Origin: a virus
Taxonomy: Duplodnaviria > Heunggongvirae > Uroviricota > Caudoviricetes
Reading direction: 5' to 3' (one strand)
IMG/VR virus record: IMGVR_UViG_3300021962_009794
DNA length: 64,000 bases
Below are positions 6,809-50,993 of the stretch, piece by piece (the first letter of the stretch is position 1; each line of letters opens with the position of its first letter). The position numbers and the translations under genes were made by a program. Below the pieces are notes generated by a model. That model saw only the letters and a program-made list of their open reading frames with translations, was not told the DNA's origin and did not search any database.

Positions 6809-7510
6809 ATGTATCATTATGTTTATAAATTGGAGCATTTGGAAACGTCAGAATTTTACATAGGAAGCAGAAGCTGTAAATGCCACCCAACGATGGATAA
6901 TTATAAGGGATCTATGCTGACATGGAAACCAGATAAGAGTATGCTAAAAAAAATTATTTTAGATGATAGTTTTAAAAACAGGGAGGAAGCAATCCTATTT
7001 GAGGCAGAGATGATTATTAAAAGTATAAATGATCCTCTTAATATGAATTTTTCAATTCCAGGAAAGTTCTTCCATACAGTAGGTATGGTAACTGTGATAG
7101 ACAAAGATGAAAATATATTTTTAGTAAGCAAAAATGATAAAAGAATAGAGAGTGGAGAACTTGTATACTTATGGAAAGGTAAAACCCACACGGATAAAGC
7201 TAAAGAAAAAATGTCGGATTCCGCTAAAAATAGAAAAATCACCGAAGAGATGGAAAAATTCAGAAGAGATGAAATATCTAAAACTCTTAAGGGTATTCCT
7301 AAAAGTAAAGAGTTTTGTGAAAATATGTCGCAAACAAGAAAGGGTGGGAACAATCCATATTCTAAATATCTAAGAGACAATAACATAGAGCATCACTCAA
7401 AGGGTAAAATATATGAAAAAGCGTTATGCCCTCATTGTAACAGAATGATATCAACTACGATTATACACGTTGCACACTTGGACAATTGTAAATCTAGAAA
7501 TAATATATGA
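6809..7510 (+). CDS. GIY-YIG family homing-endonuclease-like protein
   Basis: N-terminal HYVYKLEHLETSEFYIGSRS (GIY...YIG spacing); C-terminal CPHCN...HLDNC zinc-finger-like segment. Confidence 0.55.
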   Translation: MYHYVYKLEHLETSEFYIGSRSCKCHPTMDNYKGSMLTWKPDKSMLKKIILDDSFKNREEAILFEAEMIIKSINDPLNMNFSIPGKFFHTVGMVTVIDKDENIFLVSKNDKRIESGELVYLWKGKTHTDKAKEKMSDSAKNRKITEEMEKFRRDEISKTLKGIPKSKEFCENMSQTRKGGNNPYSKYLRDNNIEHHSKGKIYEKALCPHCNRMISTTIIHVAHLDNCKSRNNI

Positions 7511-9017: not shown

Positions 9018-9497
9018 ATGTTAGTAGACTTATCTAAGGGGGAAGAAGAGGTTCTTTCGGGAATAAGAAAGGATAGGAGATACAATGAGGGCAACTTCGA
9101 AATCAAGTACATCGAGCTTTCAGCGGAGATTCGTTCTGTTGTAGAGGCAGCAAAGATCTACATTCTTGACAACTATAAGAAGGTGAAAGATTACAAAGAT
9201 CTCCATCTCATGTTGAGATGTGCCAATCACGACGGAACTCAATACTTTGGACCAAAGAGCAAAAAACCTAAGAAAGATCAGGGGATAATTAGCAAAACAT
9301 TAGAGAATGCCATAAAGCGTCTTGACAAGCAGACAATCCAGATCAAGAAATTCGATGAAGCTGTTTATGATTGGACTGACGGAGACTTCTCTGTTGTTTT
9401 CAACGGAGTTAATTACAATTGGATTGACGGCAATTCGATAGTGGACATAGCATCTTATATAGAGAGAAAAATTGAGGAAGGTAATAAGGTTTTATAG
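9018..9497 (+). CDS. hypothetical protein (159 aa)
   Basis: ORF ending at TAG 9495-9497. Confidence 0.55.
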   Translation: MLVDLSKGEEEVLSGIRKDRRYNEGNFEIKYIELSAEIRSVVEAAKIYILDNYKKVKDYKDLHLMLRCANHDGTQYFGPKSKKPKKDQGIISKTLENAIKRLDKQTIQIKKFDEAVYDWTDGDFSVVFNGVNYNWIDGNSIVDIASYIERKIEEGNKVL

Positions 9498-9822
9498 AGA
9501 CGAGAACAAAAGATGGTACGCAGATCTACCTGAGTACATTGCACAAGGAGGAACTGTGGAAGAGTGCGAGATGGTTTCCGGTGCCGATGATTGGCTAGAC
9601 TACATCTCGGGAAACCGAGATGCCGTTGTTTTAACTTTATCTGATCAGAATTCGCTATCCGAGAAAATGCTTTTATATGAGAGCGACGAATACGGTGCTA
9701 CTTATATAGCACACACCTACAAGGAAGAAGACGTTAACCAAGTACTTTGGCTTTGTCCAGTTACTGTTTTTGTATTCGGTAACTATCCAAGCACAATTTA
9801 CTATCACGTAATAAAGGAATGA
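9472..9822 (+). CDS. hypothetical protein (no ATG start; TTG at 9472 or internal ATG)
   Basis: ORF in the +1 frame overlapping the previous gene's end; start uncertain. Confidence 0.4.
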   Translation: MRKVIRFYRDENKRWYADLPEYIAQGGTVEECEMVSGADDWLDYISGNRDAVVLTLSDQNSLSEKMLLYESDEYGATYIAHTYKEEDVNQVLWLCPVTVFVFGNYPSTIYYHVIKE

Positions 9823-10958
9823 AATACGATTTAAACATATTAAACGAATACATTGAGCGTGGACTTCTGATAAAGAATCCGCATCCAACTTTGCCTCTGG
9901 ATATCTATAACTATTCAAGAGATTGCCAGTTTAGTGAATCTTGGGATGAGATCACGTTAAATATGAGAGGTACTGTTCTGGATCGTGAAGGCAACATCGT
10001 GGCTAGGGTTTTTCCTAAGTTCTTTAACATGGAAGAACATAAGTCAGGAGAAATACCAAATGAGGATTTTGAGGTGTTTGAAAAGATGGACGGATCCCTA
10101 GGAATTCTTTTTCACTACGAAGGGGAATGGCATTTAGCTACCCGTGGATCCTTTGCCTCAGACCAAGCAATAAAGGGTAAAGAGATTCTGAGCAGATACA
10201 GGTACGAAAAGTTGATCCCAGGATACACTTACCTTTTTGAAATCATCTATCCAGAAAACAGAATCGTTTGTGACTACGGGTACGAAGATTTAGTTATGCT
10301 TGCTGTTATCGATAACAAGGACGGATACGAGCTTAGAATCCACGACAACGACATACATCTTGAAGGTATTAGATTCGCGAATCTCTACAACAATCTAGGA
10401 TTCAAGATTGTTAAGAAGTACGACGGGGTTCAAGATTATAAGCAACTGAAATCGATGATCAAGAACAATGCTGAAGGATTTGTAATCAAATTCAAATCTG
10501 GATTCAGAATGAAGATCAAAGGGGAGGAGTACGTTAGGTTGCATAGGTTGCTAACCAACTTCTCAAACGTTGATATCTGGGAGCTGTTAAAAGACGGTAG
10601 AGATCTTGATGAATTTCTAGACAGAGTTCCTGATGAGTTTGACAAATGGGTTAAGAAAACTATTCGGGATTTACAATATCATAAATACGCAATCGAGGAG
10701 AGAGCAGGTAAGACCCACGATTATTTTAGATATGGTAAGTATAACGATCGTGAAACTGAACCTACTAAGAAAGAGTTTGCTGAGCATCTAGAATTTTGTA
10801 AGGTTGAACCAAGCATAAGATCTATATGTTTTGCAATATGGGACGGAAAGAACTACGATCACATCACCTGGAAGATAATAAAACCAAAATATCAAAAACC
10901 ATTTTGGAATAAAGAGGAAGAAATTCCAGCGGATTCAAAATGGCTTAAAAAAGATTAA
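9819..10958 (+). CDS. ATP-dependent RNA ligase, T4 Rnl1-like
   Basis: Nucleotidyltransferase motif I EKMDGSL (T4 Rnl1 has KEDGSL); KFFN segment upstream; motif IV/V EGFVIKFKSGFRMKIKGEEY (T4 Rnl1 has EGYV...FKIK...Y). Confidence 0.75.
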   Translation: MKYDLNILNEYIERGLLIKNPHPTLPLDIYNYSRDCQFSESWDEITLNMRGTVLDREGNIVARVFPKFFNMEEHKSGEIPNEDFEVFEKMDGSLGILFHYEGEWHLATRGSFASDQAIKGKEILSRYRYEKLIPGYTYLFEIIYPENRIVCDYGYEDLVMLAVIDNKDGYELRIHDNDIHLEGIRFANLYNNLGFKIVKKYDGVQDYKQLKSMIKNNAEGFVIKFKSGFRMKIKGEEYVRLHRLLTNFSNVDIWELLKDGRDLDEFLDRVPDEFDKWVKKTIRDLQYHKYAIEERAGKTHDYFRYGKYNDRETEPTKKEFAEHLEFCKVEPSIRSICFAIWDGKNYDHITWKIIKPKYQKPFWNKEEEIPADSKWLKKD

Positions 10959-10961
10959 GAA

Positions 10962-11603
10962 ATGAAAATTATATTAGAAAAAAATCAGAACATATTTTTT
11001 ACGAGTGACACTCATTACAATCACTCAAATATTTGCCGCGCCACTTCTAATTGGCCGGGAGGAAGAGGCACACGAGACTTTCACTCTTTGGGTGAAATGA
11101 ACGATGCTATTGTAAGCGGTATTAACTCAGTTGTTGGACCGGACGATTACCTAGTTCATCTAGGTGATTGGAGCTTTGGTGGATTTGAATCCATTGCGGA
11201 GTTCAGAAAGAAAATAGCTTGCAAGAACGTGATACTATTTTTAGGCAACCACGATCACCACATCCGAAATAACAAGGAGGGCGTACAAGGCCATTTCAAG
11301 CAAGTTTCAAGCTACGATATTATAGATATCCGTAGGCCAGAAGGCAAGGAGATGGGTAAATACCAATTCGTATGCTGTCATTTTCCGATAGCAAGTTGGG
11401 ATGGTATGAATAAGAACGTTCCGCATTTACATGGGCACGTTCATTTACCACCTAAATTAAAAATCCACGAAGGACAGGCAATGGATGTGGGAGTAGATGG
11501 AAACAATCTCGAGCCTTACAGCTTAAATGAGATACTAAAGATTATGAAGGGAAGGCCAGTTAGGCACCTGGTATTACCCCAAGATCATCACTCGGAAGAA
11601 TAA
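10962..11603 (+). CDS. calcineurin-like metallophosphoesterase
   Basis: TSDTHYNH, HLGDW, GNHDHH and GHVH metal-binding motifs in canonical order. Confidence 0.7.
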   Translation: MKIILEKNQNIFFTSDTHYNHSNICRATSNWPGGRGTRDFHSLGEMNDAIVSGINSVVGPDDYLVHLGDWSFGGFESIAEFRKKIACKNVILFLGNHDHHIRNNKEGVQGHFKQVSSYDIIDIRRPEGKEMGKYQFVCCHFPIASWDGMNKNVPHLHGHVHLPPKLKIHEGQAMDVGVDGNNLEPYSLNEILKIMKGRPVRHLVLPQDHHSEE

Positions 11604-11613
11604 AAACAGAAAA

Positions 11614-11787
11614 ATGGTAACGCAAGAAATTTTAGACACATTCGTCTTCACCACAATCGGGGGAGAAAAATTTGGAGTTAATGATCCGACAGCTCACGAT
11701 GAGATTATTGGATATTACCCAACAAGACAAGAAGCTGAGAATGCTTTTAAGGAGTATATTGAAAAAGAAGGGATAATTTTCGAATAA
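11614..11787 (+). CDS. hypothetical small protein (57 aa, MVTQEILDTFVFTTIGGEKFG...)
   Basis: ORF below the track's 60-aa cut-off that fills the gap between two genes; its stop overlaps the next ATG (TAATG). Confidence 0.4.
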   Translation: MVTQEILDTFVFTTIGGEKFGVNDPTAHDEIIGYYPTRQEAENAFKEYIEKEGIIFE

Positions 11788-12236
11788 TGGAAAATGTAAG
11801 AAACGAAGAATACAGCACTTTGAATCCAACACTATTTCTTGTAAGAGGAATACCAGGATCAGGTAAGTCTACTTTCGCAAAGCACATCTGGAACGAGTAT
11901 GCAGTTTGTGAGGCTGATAAGTTTTTTCACAACAAAGAGACTGGTGAATACAACTTTGACGCATCAAGATTGAAAGAAGCTCATGAATGGTGCAGAAACG
12001 AGGTTGAGACTAGAATGAAAGATCACCAGGTTAATCCTCAGTATTATCCAGAGATCGTGGTTTCAAATACATTCACACAAGAATGGGAAATGCAGGCTTA
12101 TATCGATCTTGCCAAAAAATACGGTTATCAAGTCACAACATTAATCGTAGAGAACCGACACGGTAACTCAAATGTCCACAACGTTCCCGAGGAAACGCTG
12201 GATCGTATGAGACAAAGATTCGATGTAAAACTTTAA
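11787..12236 (+). CDS. P-loop polynucleotide-kinase-like kinase
   Basis: LFLVRGIPGSGKSTFAK Walker A at the N-terminus; size and layout like the T4 Pnk kinase domain. Confidence 0.6.
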   Translation: MENVRNEEYSTLNPTLFLVRGIPGSGKSTFAKHIWNEYAVCEADKFFHNKETGEYNFDASRLKEAHEWCRNEVETRMKDHQVNPQYYPEIVVSNTFTQEWEMQAYIDLAKKYGYQVTTLIVENRHGNSNVHNVPEETLDRMRQRFDVKL

Positions 12237-12239
12237 GAA

Positions 12240-13004
12240 ATGGAGGAGAACGAAAAAGTGATACCCATGACACTATCCCAAGCAAGGGAGAAGTTCGGGA
12301 AGGCAAGAAAGGCATTTGAAATCATGATTGATGATACGCCATACGTGGTTTATGATATCGATGGTTATGAGCATCAGAATGGAAAATGGAATGGTACGCC
12401 TGCCACATGGTGGCTTGATTTCTCCTCTCCCGCAGTTAAAGGAGAGATCACTCCGGAGAGGAATTTGGTTCCTTACGTCGATATAGGTGTTAATAGAATT
12501 TGCTGGGAAGTTAGATTCAAGCAAAGTAATTACGCAAAACATAAGTGGGACGAGTGGGACATAAGAAGCTCCGGCCAATGTCAGATTTATGCAAACGGTA
12601 AACTTATATACAGTTTTGGATCACGTGACGTTGCCTATGCCTTAAGCAAAGCACAATATCTGATGGTTAACCTGATGGAGCATCCGTATAACTTTCTAAA
12701 TCCAGAGGGGGAAAGAGGGAGGAAGATATGGTATTATGGTCTTCCTGCCACAGTAGAACCCTCGCATTGTCACGGCGAGATAAGGGTTGCACCTGACTAC
12801 ACCCAAATGGAGCAGGAAAGATGGTGGAAGGAATATAGTATAAGGAAAAAACCTATTGATCTCCCCAAAGAAGGTGAAGAATGGGAAACCGAAAGACAGG
12901 ACAGAGAGATGGAAGAGGAGCGTTTTAGAGAGACCAAAGATTATGGCTTCATTAATCACGGTGATGCACTCTGGGACGGCATGATAAACTGGTTTAGAAG
13001 ATAA
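12240..13004 (+). CDS. hypothetical protein (254 aa)
   Basis: ORF. Confidence 0.55.
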   Translation: MEENEKVIPMTLSQAREKFGKARKAFEIMIDDTPYVVYDIDGYEHQNGKWNGTPATWWLDFSSPAVKGEITPERNLVPYVDIGVNRICWEVRFKQSNYAKHKWDEWDIRSSGQCQIYANGKLIYSFGSRDVAYALSKAQYLMVNLMEHPYNFLNPEGERGRKIWYYGLPATVEPSHCHGEIRVAPDYTQMEQERWWKEYSIRKKPIDLPKEGEEWETERQDREMEEERFRETKDYGFINHGDALWDGMINWFRR

Positions 13005-13005
13005 A

Positions 13006-13449
13006 ATGAAAAAAATGAAAACATATAATTTATTCTTGGACGACTACAGACTTCCTGTTGATTGCTCAAGGTACATGCCCAATCCGGGATTATATAATCT
13101 TAATCAATGGGTTATAGCTAGAAACTACGACGAGTTTGTTAGCTTCATCGAGAAGAATGGTTTACCTGACATGATCTCTTTTGATCACGATCTAGCAGAC
13201 GAGCACTACTCAAATGACATGTATGCAGGTAACGAGGTTTACGATAAGAACTACGAGAAGTTCACAGAGAAAACCGGTTATGATTGCGCTAAGTGGTTGG
13301 TTGACTACTGTATGGATAAAGATCAAGATCTTCCCGAATACATAGTTCATTCAATGAATCCAGCAGGCGGGAAAAATATCTGGCAATATTTAGAGAATTA
13401 TCGAAAATTCAGGGAAGAAGAAGAGTATAAAAAGTATCACGGAGGATAA
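13006..13449 (+). CDS. hypothetical protein (147 aa)
   Basis: ORF. Confidence 0.55.
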   Translation: MKKMKTYNLFLDDYRLPVDCSRYMPNPGLYNLNQWVIARNYDEFVSFIEKNGLPDMISFDHDLADEHYSNDMYAGNEVYDKNYEKFTEKTGYDCAKWLVDYCMDKDQDLPEYIVHSMNPAGGKNIWQYLENYRKFREEEEYKKYHGG

Positions 13450-13452
13450 ATA

Positions 13453-13665
13453 ATGGCGGAACCAAGGAAAACAGTGATCCATGAGGAGCTCAACGAGAAA
13501 CAACAGAAAATGTACGATGAATGGTTATCCCACATCAAAGCAATCTACGGTGAGTATGGATTATTCACTTGGAAGATATCGCCAACCGGTATCGGAAGTG
13601 GAATCGTGGTTTATAGCCACCAAACAAAAACTGAATTAGATTTAACCGATGTCGATAGCTGGTAA
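13453..13665 (+). CDS. hypothetical small protein
   Basis: ORF. Confidence 0.45.
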   Translation: MAEPRKTVIHEELNEKQQKMYDEWLSHIKAIYGEYGLFTWKISPTGIGSGIVVYSHQTKTELDLTDVDSW

Positions 13666-14195: not shown

Positions 14196-14460
14196 CCCAC
14201 CAGAAATTTTTATTTGCGAGTGCCACTCCACCGAGCATCAGATGGTCTTTTTATATGGAGAAGACGATGATTTCCCTATGTTGTATGCCCACGTGCACCT
14301 CAATAAAAAATCCTTTTTCCAGAGACTCAAATATGCGGTTCAATATCTATTAGGTAGACAATCAAGATTTGGTGCTTTTGAAGAATTTATATTTAATCCG
14401 GATGATGCAGAGAGACTGCAGAAAGCGGTAGATTACCTAAAACAATCCAATGAAGTTTGA
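14185..14460 (+). CDS. hypothetical small protein
   Basis: ORF. Confidence 0.45.
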   Translation: MKNNPPEIFICECHSTEHQMVFLYGEDDDFPMLYAHVHLNKKSFFQRLKYAVQYLLGRQSRFGAFEEFIFNPDDAERLQKAVDYLKQSNEV

Positions 14461-15511
14461 CTTTGATGACATACTTATCCAGCCAGCTGAGATAAGCCAA
14501 ATAGAATCCAGAAAACAGGTAAATGTTTTCTGTGAGGATAATTACCTTCCTCTATTTACCGCTCCGATGGATACAGTGGTCAGCGATGATAATTATAGCT
14601 TCTTCCAGAATTCAGGTATAAGAGTCATAAGGCCAAGAAAAGCACCATCATTTGGTGTTAAGCTTGACAGTGACTTCAACGACTTTTTATCTTTTGGAAA
14701 GGATGAGTTTAAACAAATATTTTTGGATAGTGGAAAAATATCAGTAGCCGAAAAATATTACATTCTCATAGACATTGCAAATGGACACATGCAAAGTTTG
14801 CTAGACATGACTGCAGAGGCTAAATCTCTTTACGGTAACGATCTTATCTTAATGGTCGGCAATGTTGCAAATCCGGAAACTTATAAGCTTTTTTCCGATG
14901 CAGGTGCAGACTACGTTAGAATAGGTATAGGTAACGGAGGTGGATGTTTAACCACAGTACAAACAGGGGTTGGATATCCTATGGCATCTTTGGTGCATGA
15001 GTGCTATCAAATAAGCTGTGAATTAGCATCGCCGGCTAAAATCGTTGCCGACGGGGGATTTAAAAGTTACGCAGACATCATTAAGGCGCTCGCTTTGGGC
15101 GCAGATTATGTTATGCTTGGTTCAATATTGAATAAAGCTTTGGAGAGCGCAGGCGACACCTATTTAGCTAATACGAAGGGGGAAGGCTGGACCGAACCTG
15201 GTGAGAAGATCAATCAATATGCTATGGAGACTGAGAAGCTATTCAAATACGGAACTAAGATGTTTAAGAAGTTCAGAGGTATGAGCACCAAAGAGGCTCA
15301 GAAGTCTATGGGTAAGACTGAGTTAAAGACAAGCGAGGGTGTTAGTCGAATGCAACCGGTTGAATATACATTAGTAGGATGGAGAGATAATTTTGTAAGC
15401 TATCTTAGCTCTGCAATGAGTTACAGTAATGCCTCCTCGCTGAAAGAATTTATAGGAAATGCTAAATGGAACATCATTTCACAGAACTCTCTAAACAGAT
15501 TTAAGAAGTGA
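14450..15511 (+). CDS. IMPDH/GMP-reductase family protein (GMP-reductase-like, no CBS insert)
   Basis: N-terminal FDDILIQPA...LPLFTAPMDTV; GADYVRIGIGNGGGCLTTVQTGVGYP; ADGGFKSYADIIKALALGADYVMLGS. Confidence 0.65.
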   Translation: MKFDFDDILIQPAEISQIESRKQVNVFCEDNYLPLFTAPMDTVVSDDNYSFFQNSGIRVIRPRKAPSFGVKLDSDFNDFLSFGKDEFKQIFLDSGKISVAEKYYILIDIANGHMQSLLDMTAEAKSLYGNDLILMVGNVANPETYKLFSDAGADYVRIGIGNGGGCLTTVQTGVGYPMASLVHECYQISCELASPAKIVADGGFKSYADIIKALALGADYVMLGSILNKALESAGDTYLANTKGEGWTEPGEKINQYAMETEKLFKYGTKMFKKFRGMSTKEAQKSMGKTELKTSEGVSRMQPVEYTLVGWRDNFVSYLSSAMSYSNASSLKEFIGNAKWNIISQNSLNRFKK

Positions 15512-18689: not shown

Positions 18690-19307
18690 ATGCCAACAGG
18701 ATACACAGCAGGAGTGGTTGACGGAACCACCAAAACATTCAAAGATTTTGCAAAGATTTGCATGAGAGCTTTCGGGGCAGCGATTCATATGAGAGACGAA
18801 CCTCTGAGCAAGAAATATGAACACAGGGTTCCAGACGATTTCTATTACGAAAGAATTGAGGAAGCAAAGAAAAATCTTGCAGAACTCGATACGCTACCTG
18901 ACGAGCACTTCATTAAAGAGGAGCACGAGAAAATAAAGGATGATATCAGATACTACTCCGAAAAAATGAGAAAGGTTAAAGAAGCTAGAGAGAGATTAGA
19001 TTCCTTGCTGGAAGAAACATCTGAGTGGGAACCACCAACCACAGATCATGTGGAATTTAAGAATTTTATGATTCAACAACTCACCGAAACAATAAAATAT
19101 GATGGTGACGTTGAATATTATGAAGGAGAAATTGAGCGTCTTTATAAAAAATTAGATACCCCTATTGATCTGGACTCTGTTAAGAAAGATCTCAGAGAAT
19201 CTTACGAAGCTAATCTAAATAGGAGTCAAAAAAGTCTTGATGAAGAAATCGAAAGATGTAAAAAATCCCACGATTGGGCGGATCAATTATTAAAATCAAT
19301 AGAATAA
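18690..19307 (+). CDS. hypothetical coiled-coil protein
   Basis: ORF-track ORF 18648..19307 trimmed to the ATG at 18690 after the upstream stop. Confidence 0.5.
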   Translation: MPTGYTAGVVDGTTKTFKDFAKICMRAFGAAIHMRDEPLSKKYEHRVPDDFYYERIEEAKKNLAELDTLPDEHFIKEEHEKIKDDIRYYSEKMRKVKEARERLDSLLEETSEWEPPTTDHVEFKNFMIQQLTETIKYDGDVEYYEGEIERLYKKLDTPIDLDSVKKDLRESYEANLNRSQKSLDEEIERCKKSHDWADQLLKSIE

Positions 19308-19309
19308 GA

Positions 19310-20398
19310 ATGGAAAGGAAATTAGCATCCATACAAAGAATCGGAAACATACTTCCCATCGAGGGAGCAGACGCAATAGAAATCGTAACTGTTAACTCTT
19401 GGAAGGTTGTTTCTAAGAAGGGAGAATTTAATGAAGGGGATCTTTGTGTTTATTTCGAAATTGATTCGTTCTTACCTGTGAGAGAAGAATTCGAATTTCT
19501 TAGAAAATCATCTTATAAAAAGATGGGTGATGTCGAAGGATTCAGATTAAAGACAATCAAATTAAGAGGCCAGGTTTCTCAAGGACTTTGTCTTCCACTC
19601 AATATATTGGAAGGTCCAGATGAATTCGTAATCGGTGTCAGCAAGCAGCCTTGGGGAGATCAGCTTCAGATTGGACCTTATGATGACGCTTTTGTTATCG
19701 AGGAAGGTGCTGATGTAACAGAATACCTAGGTGTTCTTAAGTACGAGCCACCAGTTCCAGCAGAACTTGCAGGAAAGGTTAAAGGTCTATTCCCAGGTTT
19801 CATTAGAAAAACGGACGAGGAGAGAATCCAGAACATGACTAAGGAATACGACAGCATGCTTGATAAGCACTATTACGTAACAGAAAAACTCGACGGAAGT
19901 TCAGCTACATATTATTTCAAGGATGGTGTATTTGGCGTGTGTTCAAGAAATTTGGAGCTATTAGAAACAGAGGGAAATACTTTCTGGAAGGTTGCTAGAG
20001 AATTGCTTATCGAAGAGAAATTAAGAAACATAGGGGAGAATTACTCTATCCAAGGTGAGCTTATCGGAGAAGGCGTTCAGGGTAACCCCTACAAAATTAA
20101 AGGTCAAACTGTATTGATCTTTAACATTTTCAACATCGACAAGCAAGAGTATCTTAGTCTTGATGACATGGTTCATTTTCTACACAAAATAAATGTAGAC
20201 GATAAGCCTTTGGAGCTTGTGCCTGTCGTTAATTACGATTACAAATTACCTCCAACAATCGAGGAGATCATCAGATATGCTGACGGTAAATCAAGATTGA
20301 ATGAGGGAACAGATAGAGAGGGTATAGTTATCAGAAATAGAGACAAGAGTATTTCTTTTAAAGCTATATCAAATACGTTTTTATTAAAAGAGAAGTAA
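19310..20398 (+). CDS. second ATP-dependent RNA-ligase-like nucleotidyltransferase
   Basis: Motif I EKLDGSS with no Arg, which points to RNA rather than DNA ligase or capping enzyme; EGIVIRN and SFKAIS motif IV/V-like; N-terminal OB-like domain. Confidence 0.55.
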   Translation: MERKLASIQRIGNILPIEGADAIEIVTVNSWKVVSKKGEFNEGDLCVYFEIDSFLPVREEFEFLRKSSYKKMGDVEGFRLKTIKLRGQVSQGLCLPLNILEGPDEFVIGVSKQPWGDQLQIGPYDDAFVIEEGADVTEYLGVLKYEPPVPAELAGKVKGLFPGFIRKTDEERIQNMTKEYDSMLDKHYYVTEKLDGSSATYYFKDGVFGVCSRNLELLETEGNTFWKVARELLIEEKLRNIGENYSIQGELIGEGVQGNPYKIKGQTVLIFNIFNIDKQEYLSLDDMVHFLHKINVDDKPLELVPVVNYDYKLPPTIEEIIRYADGKSRLNEGTDREGIVIRNRDKSISFKAISNTFLLKEK

Positions 20399-23226: not shown

Positions 23227-23724
23227 ATGGAAAGAAAAAACAATAAACCGAAGAGAAACCAAGTAAAACCGAAAATAGAGCAAAAAAATGACCAAGAGGT
23301 CAGTGATTTAGAGGTAGCTAAAAAGATGCTAAAGATCTACCAAAGTGCAGCAGATAGAAAATTAGAATTTAATTTATCATTTGAATCAGTTAAAAAACTA
23401 CTAAGCTACCAAACCTGCTATTACACCAATAAAAAATTCGAGGAGGAAGGCAACTATTCCAGAAGCTTTGATCGGGTTGACTCGGCTAAAGGCTATGTAG
23501 AAGGAAATGTCGTTGCTTGCACAGTTGATATAAACGGTAAGAAGAGCAACCTATCATTTGAGGAAATAGAGTGCATTTATAAGAAAATATCTCCATTTAA
23601 AGAGAAATCAGCAAAACCAGCAAAAATAGAGGAGTCTTCCGAGGTTACTGAGGTAACCATTATCCCACAAGAAGAGGTCTCCGAGGGATATATAGAGAAT
23701 GCAGAATCACCTACTGAAATATAA
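23227..23724 (+). CDS. hypothetical protein (165 aa)
   Basis: ORF. Confidence 0.5.
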   Translation: MERKNNKPKRNQVKPKIEQKNDQEVSDLEVAKKMLKIYQSAADRKLEFNLSFESVKKLLSYQTCYYTNKKFEEEGNYSRSFDRVDSAKGYVEGNVVACTVDINGKKSNLSFEEIECIYKKISPFKEKSAKPAKIEESSEVTEVTIIPQEEVSEGYIENAESPTEI

Positions 23725-24943: not shown

Positions 24944-25309
24944 ATGAGATTCCTATTATCAATTTTTCTTATCACAATCATTGGCTGCACCAAGGCAGCA
25001 ACAACCCACAATGTAAGGGTTATAACATTTGCAGTAGATCAGTCTGGAGACTACGTAAAGCCATCCAACACTGCAATGTATTTAAACAAGACACAATGCG
25101 TTTGTTTTAGCGACTCCGTGTATGGCTACAACACAAATCCAACATTTACTCTCGAAAACGTAAATGACGGAGACGAACTACACATCATTTCCTTCGTTAA
25201 CGCTGGAGAAGAGATTCAATATAAGACTGTAGTTGTCTACGTCGACAATAAAATGATATTGAACATTTCCAATTCTCAGAACATAAACCAAAAAATTAAG
25301 TTAAGATGA
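24944..25309 (+). CDS. putative lipoprotein
   Basis: MRFLLSIFLITIIGC signal peptide plus lipobox. Confidence 0.55.
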   Translation: MRFLLSIFLITIIGCTKAATTHNVRVITFAVDQSGDYVKPSNTAMYLNKTQCVCFSDSVYGYNTNPTFTLENVNDGDELHIISFVNAGEEIQYKTVVVYVDNKMILNISNSQNINQKIKLR

Positions 25310-25899
25310 ACATGCAACAATGGTGCGTAGATCAGCACGCTAAAACAAATCATTGGTACGATACCTATCTGCCATACGAATTCCATCTAAGAATGGTCGC
25401 AAATGTCGCAAAAGATTTTCAACATCTTCTTGACAATGAAGTAGATTATTACACGGGAAAACAAGAAATTGACAAAGGCCAAGATCTAACCTTAACCTTA
25501 CGAACTGCTTGTTTACGAGCTGCTTGGGGTCACGATTTAATTGAAGACACTCGCAATTCTTATAACGATGTTAAGGAAATACTTGGACAAGAAGCTGCAG
25601 ATATTATCTATGCTGTTTCAAACGAGAAAGGAAAGAATCGTAAAGAAAGAGCAAACGACAAATACTACGAGGGAATCCGTAACACTCCAGGTGCGGTCTT
25701 TGTAAAGATGTGTGATCGTATTGCCAACGTCCAGTACTCAAAGATGACCAAGAGTCGTATGTTTGAGATGTATAAGAAAGAAAATACAGAGTTCACAAGA
25801 TCATTGGGTTTCATAGGTGGTGATTCTATTACAGTTGAGTACCCAGGTCACGAATATTACAAAATGTACAAATATCTTATTAACCTTTTTGAAAAATAA
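25306..25899 (+). CDS. HD-domain phosphohydrolase, small-alarmone-hydrolase-like
   Basis: RAAWGHDLIEDT (RelA/SpoT-type HD motif); downstream MCDRIANV. Confidence 0.55.
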   Translation: MNMQQWCVDQHAKTNHWYDTYLPYEFHLRMVANVAKDFQHLLDNEVDYYTGKQEIDKGQDLTLTLRTACLRAAWGHDLIEDTRNSYNDVKEILGQEAADIIYAVSNEKGKNRKERANDKYYEGIRNTPGAVFVKMCDRIANVQYSKMTKSRMFEMYKKENTEFTRSLGFIGGDSITVEYPGHEYYKMYKYLINLFEK

Positions 25900-25901
25900 T
25901 T

Positions 25902-26378
25902 ATGAGCCAACCGTGGTTAAGAGCTAGCATTAAAATAACAAAGCCTATCGTTCTAATAGATATGGATGGGGTTATCTGTGACTTTGACAAAAGAGCAAAG
26001 GAATTAGAAGCACAGGGTATAAAGGGACATAGCCTATTTAAGCACCCGACTGCATACAAAGATCTCGAGCCTATTGAAGGTGCAATAAGTGCATGGGATG
26101 CTTTGCAGGACAAGTACGAGACCTACATTTTAAGTACACCACCTTGGAGCAATCCTGATGCATGGGCAGAGAAAAGAGTTTGGGTAGAAACACATTTAGG
26201 TAAATCTGCCAATAAGAAGCTTATCCTTTGCCATCACAAGGGATTGGTTAAGGGTGATTTTCTTATCGACGACAGAATTGCCAATGGTGTAGCTGATTTC
26301 GAGGGAGAACATATTCATTTCGGAACCGATCAATTTCCGGGATGGAAATCGGTATTGACTTACTTAGGTATAAAATAA
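25902..26378 (+). CDS. HAD-superfamily 5'(3')-deoxyribonucleotidase-like
   Basis: LIDMDGVICDF motif I at the N-terminus, as in NT5C-type deoxynucleotidases. Confidence 0.6.
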   Translation: MSQPWLRASIKITKPIVLIDMDGVICDFDKRAKELEAQGIKGHSLFKHPTAYKDLEPIEGAISAWDALQDKYETYILSTPPWSNPDAWAEKRVWVETHLGKSANKKLILCHHKGLVKGDFLIDDRIANGVADFEGEHIHFGTDQFPGWKSVLTYLGIK

Positions 26379-27491: not shown

Positions 27492-28070
27492 ATGAAACTA
27501 ATATTCTTAGATATAGACGGAGTTCTTAATTGCGAGAACGCTTACCGAAGAGGTGAGTGCCAATACCAGGAATGGATTTGGGAAGACGGTCGCAAGGATC
27601 ACTATCAGCGATTTTGTAAACGCAGCAAAGATCTGCTAAATCAACTCATTGATGCAACTGAAGCGAAAATCGTTATCTCATCTAGTTGGAGAACAAGTGG
27701 TATTGAATTTATGAAGAAAGTTTGGGAGCTTGAAGATATGCACGGTGAAATAATAGGGATCACCCCGTCAATGAGAACTTCGGGAATAAGTATTCCACGA
27801 GGAATGGAAATTCATTACTACTTAGAGCATGACTTGGGGTTCCGTCATATCAACTGGTCAGCTGACGAGCAACAAAAACTAATGGACAAGTCGGGCGTAG
27901 AAAACTACATTATCATTGATGATGACAGTGACATGCTATACGGGCAGCGTAATCACTTCGTCCACGTTCTACCTTCACCCAGAAACAAAGAAGGATTTAA
28001 CCAGAAGTATTACAAAGAAGCTTTATCTAAATTAAGTAAAACAGTAACGGATCTAAATTATAAAAAATGA
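27492..28070 (+). CDS. HAD-superfamily hydrolase/phosphatase
   Basis: MKLIFLDIDGVLN motif I; IIIDDDSD aspartate motif. Confidence 0.55.
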   Translation: MKLIFLDIDGVLNCENAYRRGECQYQEWIWEDGRKDHYQRFCKRSKDLLNQLIDATEAKIVISSSWRTSGIEFMKKVWELEDMHGEIIGITPSMRTSGISIPRGMEIHYYLEHDLGFRHINWSADEQQKLMDKSGVENYIIIDDDSDMLYGQRNHFVHVLPSPRNKEGFNQKYYKEALSKLSKTVTDLNYKK

Positions 28071-28915
28071 AAGACGCACTAGGCGATAGAATGAAAGATT
28101 TCTACGAAGACAGGACAAGAACAAAACTTCCGAGAAGAAGTTACACAATAATCAGAATCGACGGAAAGGCTTTCCATACTTACACAAGAGGTTTAGAAAG
28201 ACCTTTTGATATGTGGCTCATGGAAGACATGGACGCAACTGCAGCTTACCTCTGTAAGAATATTCAGGGTGCTAAATTTGCATACGTTCAGTCAGATGAG
28301 ATCTCAATTCTAATTACAGATTTTGATGATCTAGGAACACACGCTTGGTTTGATAACAATCTACAAAAGATGGCTTCAGTTTCTGCTTCAATGGCAACTG
28401 CCAGATTCAACCAACTTAGATTAATTAGAGAAGCTAAGAACGGGGGAGACTTAGTTAAATCACAGATCTCACAATTTCCGATGGCTATGTTTGACGCCAG
28501 GGTATTTCAAATTCCATTTGCAGCTGAGGTTGAAAACTATTTCATCTGGAGACAGCAAGACGCTACAAGAAACTCTATCAGTTCAGCTGCACAAAGTGTT
28601 TATAGCTCTAAAGAATTACACGGGGTTAAGAGTGACGGTATGCAGGAAATGCTCTTCCAAAAGGGGATCAACTGGAACGATTACAGTCCAAGAGAGAAAA
28701 GAGGATCTGTTATCAGAAAGGTAGAGAAACAATTTGTGAGGAGAGAAACAATGGCAGAGGTAACCGATACTACAGTAGTCATTCCTGAATCTGCTACCTA
28801 TAAAAGAAATGTTTGGGAAGCAGATCCAGAAACACCAATCTTTACACAGAACAGGGAATATCTAAGATCTCTCTTTCCTAATTACGAACAACAAAAAGAG
28901 GAAGAAAATGTTTAG
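28067..28915 (+). CDS. Thg1-like protein (tRNA-His guanylyltransferase family 3'-5' nucleotidyltransferase)
   Basis: RMKDFYEDRTRTKLPRRSYTIIRIDGKAFHTYTRGLERPFD and AYVQSDEISIL follow the Thg1 N-terminal signature. Confidence 0.75.
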   Translation: MKDALGDRMKDFYEDRTRTKLPRRSYTIIRIDGKAFHTYTRGLERPFDMWLMEDMDATAAYLCKNIQGAKFAYVQSDEISILITDFDDLGTHAWFDNNLQKMASVSASMATARFNQLRLIREAKNGGDLVKSQISQFPMAMFDARVFQIPFAAEVENYFIWRQQDATRNSISSAAQSVYSSKELHGVKSDGMQEMLFQKGINWNDYSPREKRGSVIRKVEKQFVRRETMAEVTDTTVVIPESATYKRNVWEADPETPIFTQNREYLRSLFPNYEQQKEEENV

Positions 28916-38633: not shown

Positions 38634-39218
38634 TTACTTTTTAGGCTTAGTGAGGTCTGCAAGGATCCAACGATCTCTATCTTCTAAAGGGATTTCGGAA
38701 AGATCAGTATAAGGAATTCTTTCCAGCTCCAGATAATTCTTTATTATCCCGTCCAATTTCATAATCTCCTCTTTGTTGTGGTATCTTATACCATCGTTCT
38801 GATCATCTTCCTCGAGGAAGGGTGGAACGTAGTAGATCTTATGCCACTGGTTTAGAGACTTAAGTATTTCCTTCTGAAGATGATTTATTGTTGCGATATC
38901 CTTCAGACTTAGATTGTGACTGAATAAAGATCTGAAGTAAAAGTAGTTTAGGATAGAACTAGAATCACAGATGATGAATTCTTTAGACCCAACATACATT
39001 CTTTCTCTTCCCAGTTGCTGGTAGAATATTATGATCTGATCAGTAGGAGTATTAGGTATTCCCCACTCTGCAATGTAGTCTGTTGCTGCTTCACCAACAA
39101 ATATAGAGTTTCTCTTTGATATCTTTAAGCTGTGATGAACTGAGGCTGCTAAAGTGCTTTTGCCTGATGATGGTGCTCCTATTATCGAAACTAAACGTGA
39201 CTCCTGATTCTCCTTCAT
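38634..39218 (-). CDS. P-loop NTPase/kinase (AAA_28-like)
   Basis: LVSIIGAPSSGKSTLA Walker A at the N-terminus. Confidence 0.5.
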   Translation of the reverse strand: MKENQESRLVSIIGAPSSGKSTLAASVHHSLKISKRNSIFVGEAATDYIAEWGIPNTPTDQIIIFYQQLGRERMYVGSKEFIICDSSSILNYFYFRSLFSHNLSLKDIATINHLQKEILKSLNQWHKIYYVPPFLEEDDQNDGIRYHNKEEIMKLDGIIKNYLELERIPYTDLSEIPLEDRDRWILADLTKPKK

Positions 39219-41602: not shown

Positions 41603-42286
41603 ATGAACTACAGATCAGAATTTGAAAAGTACGCTAGAAGCGAACACGGAATCTCCTCACTGAGATTGGATTACTTCGATAAAAGAATCCAATCGTCAAT
41701 GACGCCTTATATCTTAGAGGAAAGAGAAATGAGAGTTACTCAGATGGATATCTTCTCACGTTTAATGAGAGATCGCATTCTTTGGGTTGCTGGAGGAGTT
41801 GATGATGACATGTCGACTGTGGTTCAGGCTCAGCTGATGTTTTTAGATTCTGTTGACGACAGAGACATCACTATGCACATCGATTCACCAGGTGGATCTG
41901 TTAAGTCCGGTCTATCTATGATTGATGTTATGGAATACATCGCATGTGACATCAGAACAGTAAATACCGGAATGGCAGCATCAATGGGATCTGTTTTATT
42001 GGGAGCAGGTACTAAAGGTAAAAGAAGCTCTTTGAGATTCAGTAAGGTGATGCTTCACCAATCAAGCGGAGGATTTAGAGGAAATATCCAGGATGCAAAG
42101 ATTGATATGCAAGAGTGGGAAGAGGTTAACAAGATTCTTTTCGATCTTCTTGGAAGTTACTGCGGTAAGAAACCAGAGCAGGTCATGAAAGATGCAACTA
42201 GAGATTTCTGGTTAAGTGCAGAAGAGGCAGTAAAATACGGAATCATTGATGAAGTAGTTCTCAAGAAGGAGAAAAAAAGAAAATAA
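41603..42286 (+). CDS. clpP: ATP-dependent Clp protease proteolytic subunit ClpP
   Basis: Canonical ClpP blocks: RDRILWVAGGVDD, AQLMFLDS, IDSPGGSV, GMAASMGS (catalytic Ser), MLHQSSGG (His). Confidence 0.85.
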   Translation: MNYRSEFEKYARSEHGISSLRLDYFDKRIQSSMTPYILEEREMRVTQMDIFSRLMRDRILWVAGGVDDDMSTVVQAQLMFLDSVDDRDITMHIDSPGGSVKSGLSMIDVMEYIACDIRTVNTGMAASMGSVLLGAGTKGKRSSLRFSKVMLHQSSGGFRGNIQDAKIDMQEWEEVNKILFDLLGSYCGKKPEQVMKDATRDFWLSAEEAVKYGIIDEVVLKKEKKRK

Positions 42287-44567: not shown

Positions 44568-44642
44568 GGTCCCTTAGCTCAGTTGGTCAGTAGCGGCGGC
44601 CTCATAAGCCGAAGGTCACAGGTTCAAGTCCTGTAGGGACCA
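44568..44642 (+). tRNA. tRNA-Met (anticodon CAU; could be elongator Met or a lysidine-modified Ile2)
   Basis: Hand fold: acceptor GGTCCCT/AGGGACC; anticodon stem GCGGC/GCCGA with loop CTCATAA; T-arm ACAGG-TTCAAGT-CCTGT; discriminator A; no encoded CCA. Confidence 0.65.
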
Positions 44643-44725
44643 CAAAGTGTTGTCACCTTGAGAAAGTGATGTTATATAGTGGCTTTGACTGAGTGCCAAC
44701 AACACTAAGGGGTTCTCTCCCTTAA

Positions 44726-48111: not shown

Positions 48112-48182
48112 AGTCAGGTGGCGGAATTGGTAGACGCTAGTTATTTATACGAAAGTTACAGGTTCGAATCCTGTCCTGACTA
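48112..48182 (+). tRNA. tRNA-like element (Leu-type D arm, aberrant anticodon region)
   Basis: Acceptor AGTCAGG/CCTGACT; D-arm GCGG-AATTGGTAGA-CGC identical to a bacterial tRNA-Leu; T-arm ACAGG-TTCGAAT-CCTGT; region between D and T arms is only about 20 nt and has no 5-bp anticodon stem (only a small AC-GAAA-GT hairpin). Confidence 0.4.
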
Positions 48183-50456: not shown

Positions 50457-50993
50457 ATGAATAGGGCAGATAAAATAACGGATCTAATGTACGGATGCAA
50501 AGCTAATGATCCAAAAGCCCAAAGAGAACTATACGATCTACTTAGCCGAAAAATGGCAGCATACATTTCAAGATATGTAGATTCAAAAGAAGATGCTGAA
50601 GAAATAGTTAATACGGGATTCTGTAGGGTTTTTCGGAAAATACATCTTTATAGCGGAATAGGGGATTTCGAAGGATGGATTTCTGTTATAATAAAAAGAG
50701 CAGCCATAGATCATCTAAAGCGTAAACTGAAAGCAAGAGAATCGATGAATGTAGTGGAGTTAAAAGAATATGAAAACTTTAAGCATCCAGAAATCGGAGA
50801 TAGCGTGGATTACATCTATAAGAGTATGGAAGGACTACCCAAGAAAACAAAAAGAGTAATGGATCTTTTTATTAGAGGATTTAAGCACAGTGAGATTGGA
50901 GATATAATAGGGATTAGCGAGGGAACATCTAAGTGGCACGTTCACGAGGCCAAAAAGATTATGCTAGGTAGGATAACAAAAAAGGCGGGATAA
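50457..50993 (+). CDS. sigma-70-family (ECF-like) RNA polymerase sigma factor
   Basis: Region 2-like GFCRVFRKIHLY...GWISVIIKRAAIDHLKRK; region 4 HTH GFKHSEIGDIIGISEGTSKWHVHEAKKIM. Confidence 0.65.
   Translation: MNRADKITDLMYGCKANDPKAQRELYDLLSRKMAAYISRYVDSKEDAEEIVNTGFCRVFRKIHLYSGIGDFEGWISVIIKRAAIDHLKRKLKARESMNVVELKEYENFKHPEIGDSVDYIYKSMEGLPKKTKRVMDLFIRGFKHSEIGDIIGISEGTSKWHVHEAKKIMLGRITKKAG

Follow-up and report, generated by a model that had tools for sequence, protein, structure and literature searches.

To our knowledge, the Pnkp–Rnl1 pathway of phage T4 is the only phage RNA-repair pathway that has been worked out experimentally. RNA targets of bacterial immunity, including tRNA, are increasingly recognized (examples are the anticodon nucleases, Cas13, type III CRISPR, PARIS and retrons). 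Phage gene neighborhoods that contain a T4-like tRNA ligase together with cREC, a kinase and a calcineurin-like phosphoesterase were described computationally in 2021–2022 by Iyer, Burroughs, Anantharaman and Aravind, who reported a type found in Escherichia phage V5 and Proteus phage Mydo as well as RNA-repair sets of jumbo phages (PMC7824862, PMC9503650); in these neighborhoods, which are themselves computational predictions, the phosphoesterase, MazG or sirtuin is optional. Among cellular systems, Pnkp of C. thermocellum (CthPnkp) is a kinase-metallophosphoesterase-ligase fusion that can, in vitro, heal broken tRNA so that T4 Rnl1 seals it (PMC1920235), and Trl1 of fungi and plants is a three-activity heal-and-seal enzyme in which a Pnk-like kinase is joined to a ligase of the covalent nucleotidyltransferase type (PMC1920235, PMC10946426).

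We analyzed a stretch of 64,000 nucleotides (referred to as the window) from an uncultured jumbo (giant) phage. The cultured phages most closely related to it have Bacteroidota as hosts (Flavobacterium, Cellulophaga). As judged from its predicted proteins, the window probably contains an operon with which the phage heals and seals RNA ends. Four ORFs were found on the + strand, encoding a predicted Rnl1-family ATP-dependent RNA ligase as the sealing enzyme (9819..10958, 379 aa), a stand-alone binuclear metallophosphoesterase (MPE; 10962..11603, 213 aa), a conserved small protein (o57; 11614..11787, 57 aa) and a stand-alone Pnk-like P-loop kinase that is a candidate RNA 5'-OH kinase (11787..12236, 149 aa). 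This is the gene set of the initial annotation, at the coordinates given there, and independent gene callers placed these genes, with the 57-aa ORF among them, in three source metagenome contigs. The module limits given in that annotation (9819-12236) were too narrow, as three further + strand genes also belong to it: o254, an orphan 254-aa protein (12240..13004), a protein with a cyclic-phosphate-processing receiver-like domain (cREC; 13006..13449, with the gene callers' start at 13015), and o70, an orphan 70-aa protein (13453..13665). The first four genes are separated by gaps of 3-10 nt or have overlapping stop and start codons, and no internal signals were detected between these packed genes.

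The module resembles the neighborhoods of Iyer et al. in having an Rnl1-type ligase, a small P-loop kinase, a calcineurin-like phosphoesterase and cREC encoded co-directionally in a large phage, and in its predicted role (RNA-end clean-up and sealing). It differs from them as follows: the phosphoesterase is a regular rather than an occasional member (in 51 out of 62 non-redundant loci, an MPE gene lies on the same strand and within 6 kb of the ligase gene), no sirtuin, MazG, KptA, Nudix or 2H was found among the window ORFs scanned, and the lineage-specific orphans o57, o254 and o70 lie in or beside the module. Since comparative genomics has described clusters of this kind before, the locus is a fresh example and not a fresh kind; it bears out and broadens a prediction already made computationally and reveals no new kind of system. 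We predict it to be a compact, intact and metagenome-widespread example of an alternative repair pathway made from separate parts.

As in T4, where rnlA and pseT are near each other, the repair genes are close together, but there is no HAD phosphatase, and a metallophosphoesterase and cREC are present in addition. The initial annotation had proposed that healing is split into two polypeptides with a metallophosphoesterase replacing the HAD phosphatase, and the separate ORFs confirm this arrangement, which is already known from CthPnkp in bacteria (PMC1920235) and from jumbo phages (Iyer et al.; PMC7824862, PMC9503650). With bacterial Pnkp the module shares a Pnk-like kinase (nearest to the CthPnk structure), a binuclear metallophosphoesterase predicted to act in 3' healing, and an ATP-dependent ligase; however, each of these is a polypeptide of its own, encoded in the order ligase-phosphoesterase-kinase, and not part of a single kinase-phosphoesterase-ligase protein, the MPE is of the aq_1665 clade, and the ligase is of the Rnl1 type, not a Pnkp ligase domain. 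A bacterial Pnkp-Hen1 system was rejected, given the order of the three genes and the lack of a Hen1/methyltransferase match (Pfam or PHROGs) among the ~60 window ORFs scanned. The heal-and-seal logic with three activities is also that of Trl1, which in contrast is a single polypeptide whose 2H cyclic phosphodiesterase leaves a 2'-PO4, for which Tpt1 is then required; neither a 2H nor a Tpt1/KptA gene turned up among the window ORFs scanned.

Pfam models RNA_lig_T4_1, Metallophos and AAA_33, which the initial annotation had named for the three enzymes, were all matched far beyond chance. The ligase matched RNA_lig_T4_1 at 2.6e-16 (60.6 bits, cut-off 28.3), phrog_562 at 1e-64 (the match spans residues 15-361) and T4 Rnl1 structures at ~1e-11 (7e-12 for PDB 2c5u). 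Its score against NCBIfam TIGR02308, the T4 RnlA equivalog model, was 67.2 (cut-off 242.25); having passed the Pfam cut-off and missed this one, the protein is a member of the Rnl1 family but not an equivalog of T4 RnlA. Assignment to a DNA-ligase or capping family was rejected, as the profiles give the Rnl1 family. The motifs that had led to the label of Rnl1-like ligase (KMDGSL and EGFVIKF...KIK) are present: they read FEKMDGSL, with the predicted nucleophile K89 in KMDGS, and EGFVIKF...MKIKGEEY, with E219, G220, K232 and K234. In an alignment of 18 sequences including T4, residues R50, K67, F69, K89, G92, E141, E219, G220, K232 and K234 are invariant and correspond, in this order, to T4 R54, K75, F77, K99, G102, E159, E227, G228, K240 and K242. 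Mutational studies from the Shuman lab reportedly define Rnl1-specific essential residues that include T4 R54, K75, F77, G102 and K119. All of these are kept in the window ligase except K119, whose counterpart is R109; this change is conservative, since the residue is Arg here and Lys in some relatives. When the ligase family profile was aligned with full-length T4 RnlA using hhalign (99.4%, E 5.6e-22), the alignment covered T4 residues 50-354 of 374, with low per-column confidence in the C-terminal part; by this comparison, the ligase has a region homologous to the C-terminal helical domain of T4 Rnl1, a domain implicated in tRNA specificity.

Phrog_562 and several database records are named 'RNA ligase and tail fiber protein attachment catalyst', and the ligase could be mainly structural or morphogenetic, like T4 gp63 in tail-fiber attachment, with its neighboring genes unrelated. 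We consider this highly improbable: apart from T4 K119 (R109 here) the catalytic residues of the ligase are invariant, its neighbors encode nucleic-acid enzymes, not tail proteins, its linkage with the kinase, the phosphoesterase and cREC is conserved, and the tail-fiber role is not known outside T4.

The kinase matched Pfam AAA_33 (1.3e-13), phrog_2071 (3e-46) and phrog_505, 'polynucleotide kinase' (8e-9). In a profile search of PDB its matches were CthPnk (4gp7, 6e-6), PSTK (5e-5) and T4 Pnk (4e-4), and hhalign against T4 PseT (95.7%, E 8e-9) indicated homology with the N-terminal domain of PseT. Foldseek searches of PDB with its AF2 model (pLDDT 80) ranked CthPnk (TM 0.61) and T4 Pnk (TM 0.58) at the top, ahead of AvrRxo1, PFKFB and PNKP. 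Both by profile and by predicted fold, then, the kinase has the polynucleotide kinases of C. thermocellum and T4 as its nearest solved relatives, and the resemblance to T4 Pnk first seen by eye was borne out; an unrelated nucleoside/nucleotide kinase family was rejected because the best matches are Pnk-type kinases. Hallmarks of Pnk are a P-loop of the form GxxGxGK(S/T) and, following strand 2, an Asp that acts as general base (T4 D35, CthPnk D38). The P-loop (G21-T29) and the catalytic Asp (D44, aligned with T4 D35 and also with the SSD motif of CthPnk) are invariant in the family. In T4 Pnk, R38 and D85/T86 contact the phospho-acceptor, and R122 and R126 are lid arginines. According to hhalign, F47 of the window kinase is found at T4 R38, N94 at D85 and T95 at T86, and its invariant ENRH (R124) falls within two positions of T4 R122/R126, out of register. 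Since it lacks equivalents of T4 R38 and D85, an RNA 5'-OH is a putative phospho-acceptor. In Iyer et al. the kinase is named 'nucleotide kinase' only (PMC7824862, PMC9503650).

For the MPE, matches to Pfam Metallophos (7e-7, above the cut-off) and phrog_547 (3e-42) and a complete set of metal-binding motifs (DxH, GD, GNH(D/E), H and GHxH) uphold its description as a calcineurin-like phosphoesterase. Among 21 sequences, little or no variation is seen at positions D16/H18, G68/D69, G95/N96/H97/D98, H140 and G158/H159/H161. A profile search of PDB gave a single confident solved relative, aq_1665 (1xm7, 3.7e-16; cd07390 clade), with marginal GpdQ-like matches and no Pnkp or lambda-phosphatase match. 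Motif II reads GDWSFGG, without the arginine of GDxxDR, and we rejected membership in the Pnkp/lambda-phosphatase clade on both grounds. The MPE may work like the phosphatase of Pnkp although it is outside that clade, and it is a candidate 3'-end healing enzyme (for a 2',3'-cyclic phosphate, 3'-phosphate or 2'-phosphate).

The cREC protein matched Pfam cREC_REC (PF20274) at 1.4e-22 (80.6 bits, cut-off 27), with D12, D13, D60, H61, D62, E88, T90, H115, S116 and N118 invariant, and no histidine kinase was found in its neighborhood. From its sequence it is predicted to open 2',3'-cyclic phosphates; this function has been proposed as a prediction only (PMC7824862, PMC9503650), and the domain was described as experimentally uncharacterized (PMC9503650). 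A cREC gene lies within 6 kb of the ligase gene at 20 of the 62 loci, and it directly follows the ligase gene, with overlapping stop and start codons, at L060, L082-84, L139 and L148. The distributions of MPE and cREC are not complementary (Fisher p = 0.47).

We then considered linkage in other phages. Ligase, phosphoesterase and kinase genes are found on one strand at 29 of the 39 ligase-anchored loci with full flanks, although part of this linkage is synteny by descent because related loci are not independent. Gene order varies (MPE-kinase-ligase at 25 loci, ligase-MPE-kinase at 10 and kinase-ligase-MPE at one), and compact kinase-ligase-cREC operons are seen at some loci. In distant cultured phages of Aeromonas and Pseudomonas, the kinase gene lies right next to that of an RNA ligase: MPE, ligase and kinase are encoded by consecutive genes in Aeromonas phage phiA009, and Pseudomonas phage Pyxpy02 has HD, MPE, ligase and kinase genes. 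In addition, the ligase, MPE and kinase match the three domains of a fused phage family, phrog_8238, in the order kinase-phosphoesterase-ligase. That the genes stay linked even where the loci are rearranged speaks for a joint function.

These data also bear on whether the kinase, MPE and cREC might act on small-molecule nucleotides instead of RNA ends, with the ligase nearby only as part of a shared early counter-defense block; they could, for example, break down or alter immune signals (cyclic nucleotides, cADPR or oligoadenylates) or act in the processing of NAD/ADPr. Besides RNA ends, cADPr or 2',3'-cyclic nucleotides were proposed as substrates of cREC (PMC7824862, PMC9503650), and aq_1665, the sole solved relative of the MPE, has no known function. 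In the cultured Bacteroidota phages immuto (Flavobacterium) and phi17:2 (Cellulophaga), members of the MPE family have no ligase or kinase close by, the kinase is alone at 7 of 63 full-flank loci, and the missing equivalents of T4 Pnk R38 and D85 fit this possibility as well. We nevertheless think it unlikely, as the adjacency of kinase and ligase survives rearrangements and extends to distant phages, the ligase stop overlaps the cREC start at several loci, the kinase finds its top profile and fold matches among polynucleotide kinases, plus a tRNA kinase, and not among nucleoside/nucleotide kinases, and the window ORFs scanned gave no sirtuin, KptA, Macro, Nudix or 2H partner.

Under the preferred reading as an RNA-repair operon, each step of the mechanism is based on homology and gene linkage. 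A metal-independent ribonuclease (of the host or of a competitor) would cut RNA, most plausibly in a tRNA anticodon loop, and the 149-aa Pnk-like kinase would phosphorylate the 5'-OH. The 3' end would be converted to 3'-OH, for which cREC may open the cyclic phosphate before the binuclear MPE strips the monophosphate; alternatively, the MPE alone might perform both 3' steps, like the CthPnkp phosphatase. The Rnl1-family ligase, adenylylated on K89, would then join the 3'-OH to the 5'-PO4. The operon may thereby counter a host defense that targets RNA, as the initial annotation suggested, for example an anticodon nuclease such as PrrC or RloC. If this is true, a function would be assigned to the structural-genomics orphan clade of aq_1665 metallophosphoesterases and to cREC, the stand-alone kinase, phosphatase and ligase would perhaps be useful as reagents, and the three small conserved proteins would become candidate new players.

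Other putative RNA-processing genes are found in the window, outside the core module. A second RNA ligase of the NgrRnl/DraRnl type (19274..20398, + strand), encoded in the same co-directional gene block as the module, has an N-terminal OB domain followed by a nucleotidyltransferase domain (Pfam PHA02142 OB, 5e-40, and RNA_ligase, 6e-26; phrog_968, 7e-84; Naegleria RNA ligase, PDB 5cot, 3.4e-77). A Thg1-like protein, i.e. a 3'-5' nucleotidyltransferase of the tRNA 5'-end repair type, is encoded at 28067..28915 (+ strand; phrog_4717, 2e-87; Pfam Thg1, 3.3e-28; bacterial Thg1-like protein, PDB 4kgk, 1.8e-61); its gene and one for an HD hydrolase also lie in the gene block of the module. With these three predicted enzymes, the module appears to belong to a broader RNA-repair toolkit. 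Such a toolkit could also serve RNA metabolism of the phage itself (processing of tRNAs or introns, mending of incidental damage, or RNA circularization) and not counter-defense, a reading that involves the same enzymology and is therefore about purpose, not mechanism. The two tRNA genes of the window, the Thg1-like tRNA 5'-end enzyme and the second, nick-sealing-type ligase are in line with it, as is the MPE homolog of Flavobacterium phage immuto, whose gene comes directly after a cluster of four tRNA genes. We hold it to be quite improbable, given that reversal of anticodon-nuclease damage is the only experimentally established role of Pnkp-Rnl1 (T4 record annotation; PMC1920235) and that none of the tRNAs detected within the window is split or contains an intron.

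A bolder version of the repair reading, which we put forward tentatively and with some doubt, is that the module forms an RNA-repair machine more elaborate than any characterized, with 3' healing split between cREC and the MPE and with o57, o254 and o70 as new subunits. In such a machine, opening of the cyclic phosphate would fall to cREC and removal of the monophosphate to the aq_1665-clade MPE, and the orphans, especially o70, might confer tRNA specificity, bridge the enzymes or neutralize the nuclease. No match to o70 was found in PDB, and its relatives form ~236 clusters, every one of them labeled 'hypothetical'. o70 retains 88-95% amino acid identity at loci where the ligase is only 56-59% identical, and its place varies: it can follow cREC, stand immediately upstream of the ligase gene or separate the phosphoesterase gene from that of the kinase. 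Codon comparisons gave 20-29 synonymous versus 3-8 nonsynonymous changes in five relatives (80-85% nucleotide identity), and 27 versus 13 in a sixth (72%); o70 is under very strong purifying selection and moves together with the module. o254, which has a confident predicted fold without a match, separates the kinase gene from cREC in only some of the relatives. o57 has no match in Pfam, PHROG or PADLOC; it is intact and of the same length in four distinct relatives, compared with which it shows 12-18 synonymous and 8-12 nonsynonymous codon changes, and its stop codon overlaps the start codon of the kinase.

The four ORFs that an initial annotation had read as a T4-style RNA/tRNA repair module (9819-12236) were all confirmed at their positions on the + strand, i.e., a Rnl1-family ligase (LIG; 9819-10958, 379 aa), a metallophosphoesterase (MPE; 10962-11603, 213 aa), an orphan protein of 57 aa (o57; 11614-11787) and a Pnk-like kinase (KIN; 11787-12236, 149 aa). 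They are tightly spaced, with two gaps (3 and 10 nt) and one overlap of stop and start codons, and independent pipelines made the same gene calls, including the 57-aa ORF, in three metagenome contigs with an identical ligase. Based on gene structure, family membership, intact active sites and conserved linkage, we consider it likely that these genes form an RNA heal-and-seal module, so the proposed RNA-repair reading stands; its proposed extent was too narrow, as three further + strand genes lie directly 3' of the kinase. These encode an orphan protein of 254 aa (o254; 12240-13004), a predicted cyclic-phosphate-processing receiver-like domain protein (cREC; 13006-13449, 147 aa) and an orphan protein of 70 aa (o70; 13453-13665). 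A DUF6717 gene (9472-9822, + strand; 1.8e-31, TTG start) shares 4 nt with the start of the ligase gene; we rejected it as a module member, and it probably lies outside the module, as it is near the ligase in just 2-3 related loci. No plausible terminator interrupts the module (the terminator-like hairpins within it are all inside ORFs), and sigma-70 promoter-like sites occur at chance level (31 found vs 31.8 expected, in a scan that may not suit a Bacteroidota host), which together fit co-transcription of the module.

The ligase matches Pfam RNA_lig_T4_1 with 60.6 bits (threshold 28.3), the PHROG containing T4 gp63/Rnl1 (1e-64) and crystal structures of T4 Rnl1 (~1e-11), bearing out the Rnl1 motifs first noticed in it. 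An hhalign comparison of its family profile with the complete T4 RnlA sequence of a T4 genome record gave 99.4% probability and E 5.6e-22, covering T4 residues 50-354 and thus reaching into the C-terminal domain. The residues that we take to be essential in T4 Rnl1 are R54, K75, F77, K99, G102, E159, E227, G228, K240 and K242 (also K119). In an alignment of 17 family members from related loci and the T4 fragment from the PDB search, the first ten of these correspond to invariant R50, K67, F69, K89, G92, E141, E219, G220, K232 and K234; the T4 K119 position is Arg109 in the window ligase and Lys in some relatives. With these matches and residues kept, yet a score of 67 against the NCBIfam T4 RnlA equivalog that is well under the cut-off (242), the protein, as judged from its sequence, belongs to the Rnl1 ligase family without being a T4 RnlA equivalog. 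We also observed that the ligases of four related phage loci (L039, L060, L148 and L155) have a ~45-aa insertion right behind motif I (…ELSDERRYNIWFNNNYETGME…PNFDDPYY…, alignment residues ~100-145), absent in the window ligase and T4 Rnl1.

The kinase, initially likened to the kinase domain of T4 Pnk, matches Pfam AAA_33 (1.3e-13), phrog_2071 ('ATPase', 3e-46) and, more weakly, phrog_505 ('polynucleotide kinase', 8e-9). A single-sequence PDB search was uninformative; a 21-member family profile went beyond bare P-loop matches and recovered the kinase domain of C. thermocellum Pnkp (6e-6), PSTK, a tRNA kinase (5e-5), and T4 Pnk (4e-4). According to hhalign, the similarity to T4 PseT extends across the kinase domain (95.7% probability, E 8e-9), and when an AlphaFold2 model (pLDDT 80) was compared with the PDB in Foldseek, it matched CthPnk (TM 0.61) and the kinase domain of T4 Pnk (TM 0.58) best. 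Invariant features of the family are the P-loop and D44, the general-base Asp equivalent to T4 D35. Given these profile, hhalign and fold matches and the kept P-loop and Asp, homology to Pnk-type kinases is well supported, and the likeness first drawn holds. Phe47 and Asn94 occupy the positions of T4 R38 and D85, and in place of the lid arginines there is an invariant ENRH motif, which is out of register in the alignment; the phospho-acceptor is suggested by context. Searching a large database with the kinase profile returned near-identical stand-alone 'predicted kinases' only, and was uninformative on fusions. The kinase is also the sole module protein matched by PADLOC (N-terminal kinase-like domain of a CARF-PD-(D/E)xK CRISPR-ancillary family; PDLC01900, 2e-11), so this kinase fold is used on the host-immunity side too; we rejected the reading of the module as a defence or exclusion system.

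The phosphoesterase is very likely an active metallophosphoesterase, to judge from the five metal-binding motifs of the calcineurin-like superfamily, all invariant among 21 family members. Motif II reads GDWSFGG, in which the arginine of GDxxDR is missing, and the protein falls outside the one clade of metallophosphoesterases with a known role in healing RNA 3' ends. The only confident match of its family profile is Aquifex aq_1665 (1xm7, 3.7e-16), which came from structural genomics and whose function is unknown; the profile retrieved neither Pnkp nor lambda-phosphatase-type enzymes. A homologue in a Cellulophaga phage record is annotated via CDD cd07390. A second candidate for 3' end healing is the cREC protein, which matches Pfam cREC_REC ('cyclic-phosphate processing receiver domain', 1.4e-22) and has invariant receiver-type aspartates. 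The domain was defined by the Aravind group from the operons it shares with RNA ligases and NAD/ADPr enzymes, and was predicted to open 2',3'-cyclic phosphates (PMC7824862, PMC9503650). We found no experimental studies on these kinase, phosphoesterase or cREC families in the literature.

We infer all enzymatic steps, and with them the biological purpose of the module: a metal-independent RNase would leave ends bearing a 2',3'-cyclic phosphate or a 5'-OH, the kinase would phosphorylate the 5' end, cREC and/or the metallophosphoesterase would turn the 3' end into a 3'-OH, and the Rnl1-type ligase would seal the break. There is experimental precedent for metallophosphoesterase healing that feeds a Rnl1 ligase, since CthPnkp (a kinase-metallophosphoesterase-ligase fusion) carries out every end-healing step when tRNA is spliced in vitro with T4 Rnl1 (PMC1920235; compare PMC2190708).

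To examine linkage, 160 related IMG/VR loci were fetched with the ligase and the kinase, and module genes were placed by tblastn. Among 62 non-redundant ligase-anchored loci, the phosphoesterase (51), the kinase (43) and cREC (20) are found ≤6 kb from the ligase, always on the same strand; 29 of the 39 ligase-anchored loci with full flanks contain ligase, phosphoesterase and kinase together. All 36 non-redundant ligase-anchored three-gene loci fall into three gene orders: MPE-KIN-LIG (25), LIG-MPE-KIN (10) and KIN-LIG-MPE (1). The linkage has thus survived rearrangement, in loci that are relatives and hence non-independent. Module composition is combinatorial: the 63 full-flank loci include 21 with ligase, phosphoesterase and kinase, 9 with these three and cREC, 5 with ligase, kinase and cREC, 5 with ligase and kinase, and 4 with ligase, phosphoesterase and cREC, among others. 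In several KIN-LIG-cREC loci, ligase and cREC overlap by their stop and start codons, respectively. Mutual exclusivity of phosphoesterase and cREC, which would suggest that they are functional substitutes, was rejected (Fisher p = 0.47).

The linkage is also present in distant cultured phages whose ligase is just ~25-30% identical, e.g. as consecutive MPE-LIG-KIN genes in Aeromonas phage phiA009, and as HD, MPE, LIG and KIN in Pseudomonas phage Pyxpy02, where the kinase is already annotated as 'putative polynucleotide kinase'. All three window proteins match the three domains of a fused phage family (phrog_8238), whose kinase-phosphoesterase-ligase order is the architecture of bacterial Pnkp. 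The kinase stands alone in some related loci, and the phosphoesterase family occurs in Cellulophaga phage phi17:2 without a nearby ligase or kinase. The closest cultured phosphoesterase homologue (58% identity), in Flavobacterium phage immuto (L165, 4880-6651), comes directly after a four-gene tRNA cluster (Cys, Ser, Glu, Gln), and neither a ligase nor a kinase lies within 6 kb of it.

None of o57, o254 and o70 has a match in Pfam, PHROG, PADLOC or PDB. Four distinct relatives have an intact o57 of identical length, and its synonymous changes there exceed its nonsynonymous ones. The most notable orphan is o70, which is 88-95% identical where the ligase of the same locus is 56-59% identical. 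Five of six relatives compared, at nucleotide identities of 80-85%, differ in it by 20-29 synonymous vs 3-8 nonsynonymous codon changes, which indicates protein-level conservation, not recent transfer. Its position in the module varies: it may follow cREC, lie immediately upstream of the ligase, or separate phosphoesterase and kinase.

The cluster belongs to a known, computationally defined kind, so its novelty is less than initially implied: Iyer et al. described cREC operonically linked to RNA ligases, and jumbo-phage RNA-end phosphatases that are usually HAD-type and 'in a small number ... calcineurin-like and HD-like' (PMC7824862). It differs from the published cREC/RNA-ligase phage neighbourhoods in having no sirtuin or MazG, a phosphoesterase as a regular member, and three orphan genes specific to the lineage; none of the sirtuin, MazG, KptA/Tpt1, 2H, Nudix, Macro and Hen1 partners of published variants was found among ~60 window ORFs scanned. 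What remains new are two candidate healing enzymes (the aq_1665-clade phosphoesterase and cREC) and the orphan proteins, o70 above all.

The window (G+C ~38%) has no match to cultured phages in a near-identity DNA search, and its lineage is known only from metagenomes. IMG/VR contigs of 127-349 kb, whose ligases are 81-90% identical, are the closest relatives, and many other related contigs measure 250-373 kb; sizes like these suggest a jumbo-phage lineage. Among cultured phages, the nearest relatives of the phosphoesterase are in those infecting Flavobacterium and Cellulophaga.

Three other genes of interest lie in the co-directional block of the module (all + strand). The first encodes another RNA ligase, this one of the NgrRnl/DraRnl (Naegleria/Deinococcus) type (19274-20398; PDB 5cot, 3e-77; N-terminal OB domain), a type with demonstrated nick-sealing activity on duplex RNA (PMC4408790), so two RNA ligase families are found ≤10 kb apart in one phage. 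The second is an HD-type metal-dependent phosphohydrolase (25306-25899; phrog_990, 7e-24; Pfam HD_4 marginal only), followed by an ORF (25902-26378, +) matching phrog_420 (unknown function, 6e-21) and, more weakly, a 5'-3' deoxyribonucleotidase family (6.5e-8). The third is a Thg1-like 3'-5' nucleotidyltransferase (28067-28915; Pfam Thg1, 3e-28; PDB 4kgk, 2e-61), of a type associated with tRNA 5'-end repair.

The window contains two tRNA genes, i.e., tRNA-Met (44568-44643), the only one reported by ARAGORN, and a second (48112-48182, +; Rfam, 43 bits) that ARAGORN missed. Other genes encode an IMPDH/GMP-reductase-like protein (14450-15511, +), an AAA_28 protein (38634-39218, -), ClpP protease (41603-42286, +; 5e-57), an ECF-type sigma factor (50457-50993, +) and a tyrosinase-domain protein (51112-52548, -; 2e-28). 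Two ORFs are possibly of homing-endonuclease type: one (6809-7510, +) begins with a GIY-YIG-like MYHYVYKLEHLETSEFYIGS motif and has no Pfam match at 1e-3, and the other (23227-23724, +) is HNH/endonuclease VII-like and matches several PHROGs (1e-12 to 1e-22).
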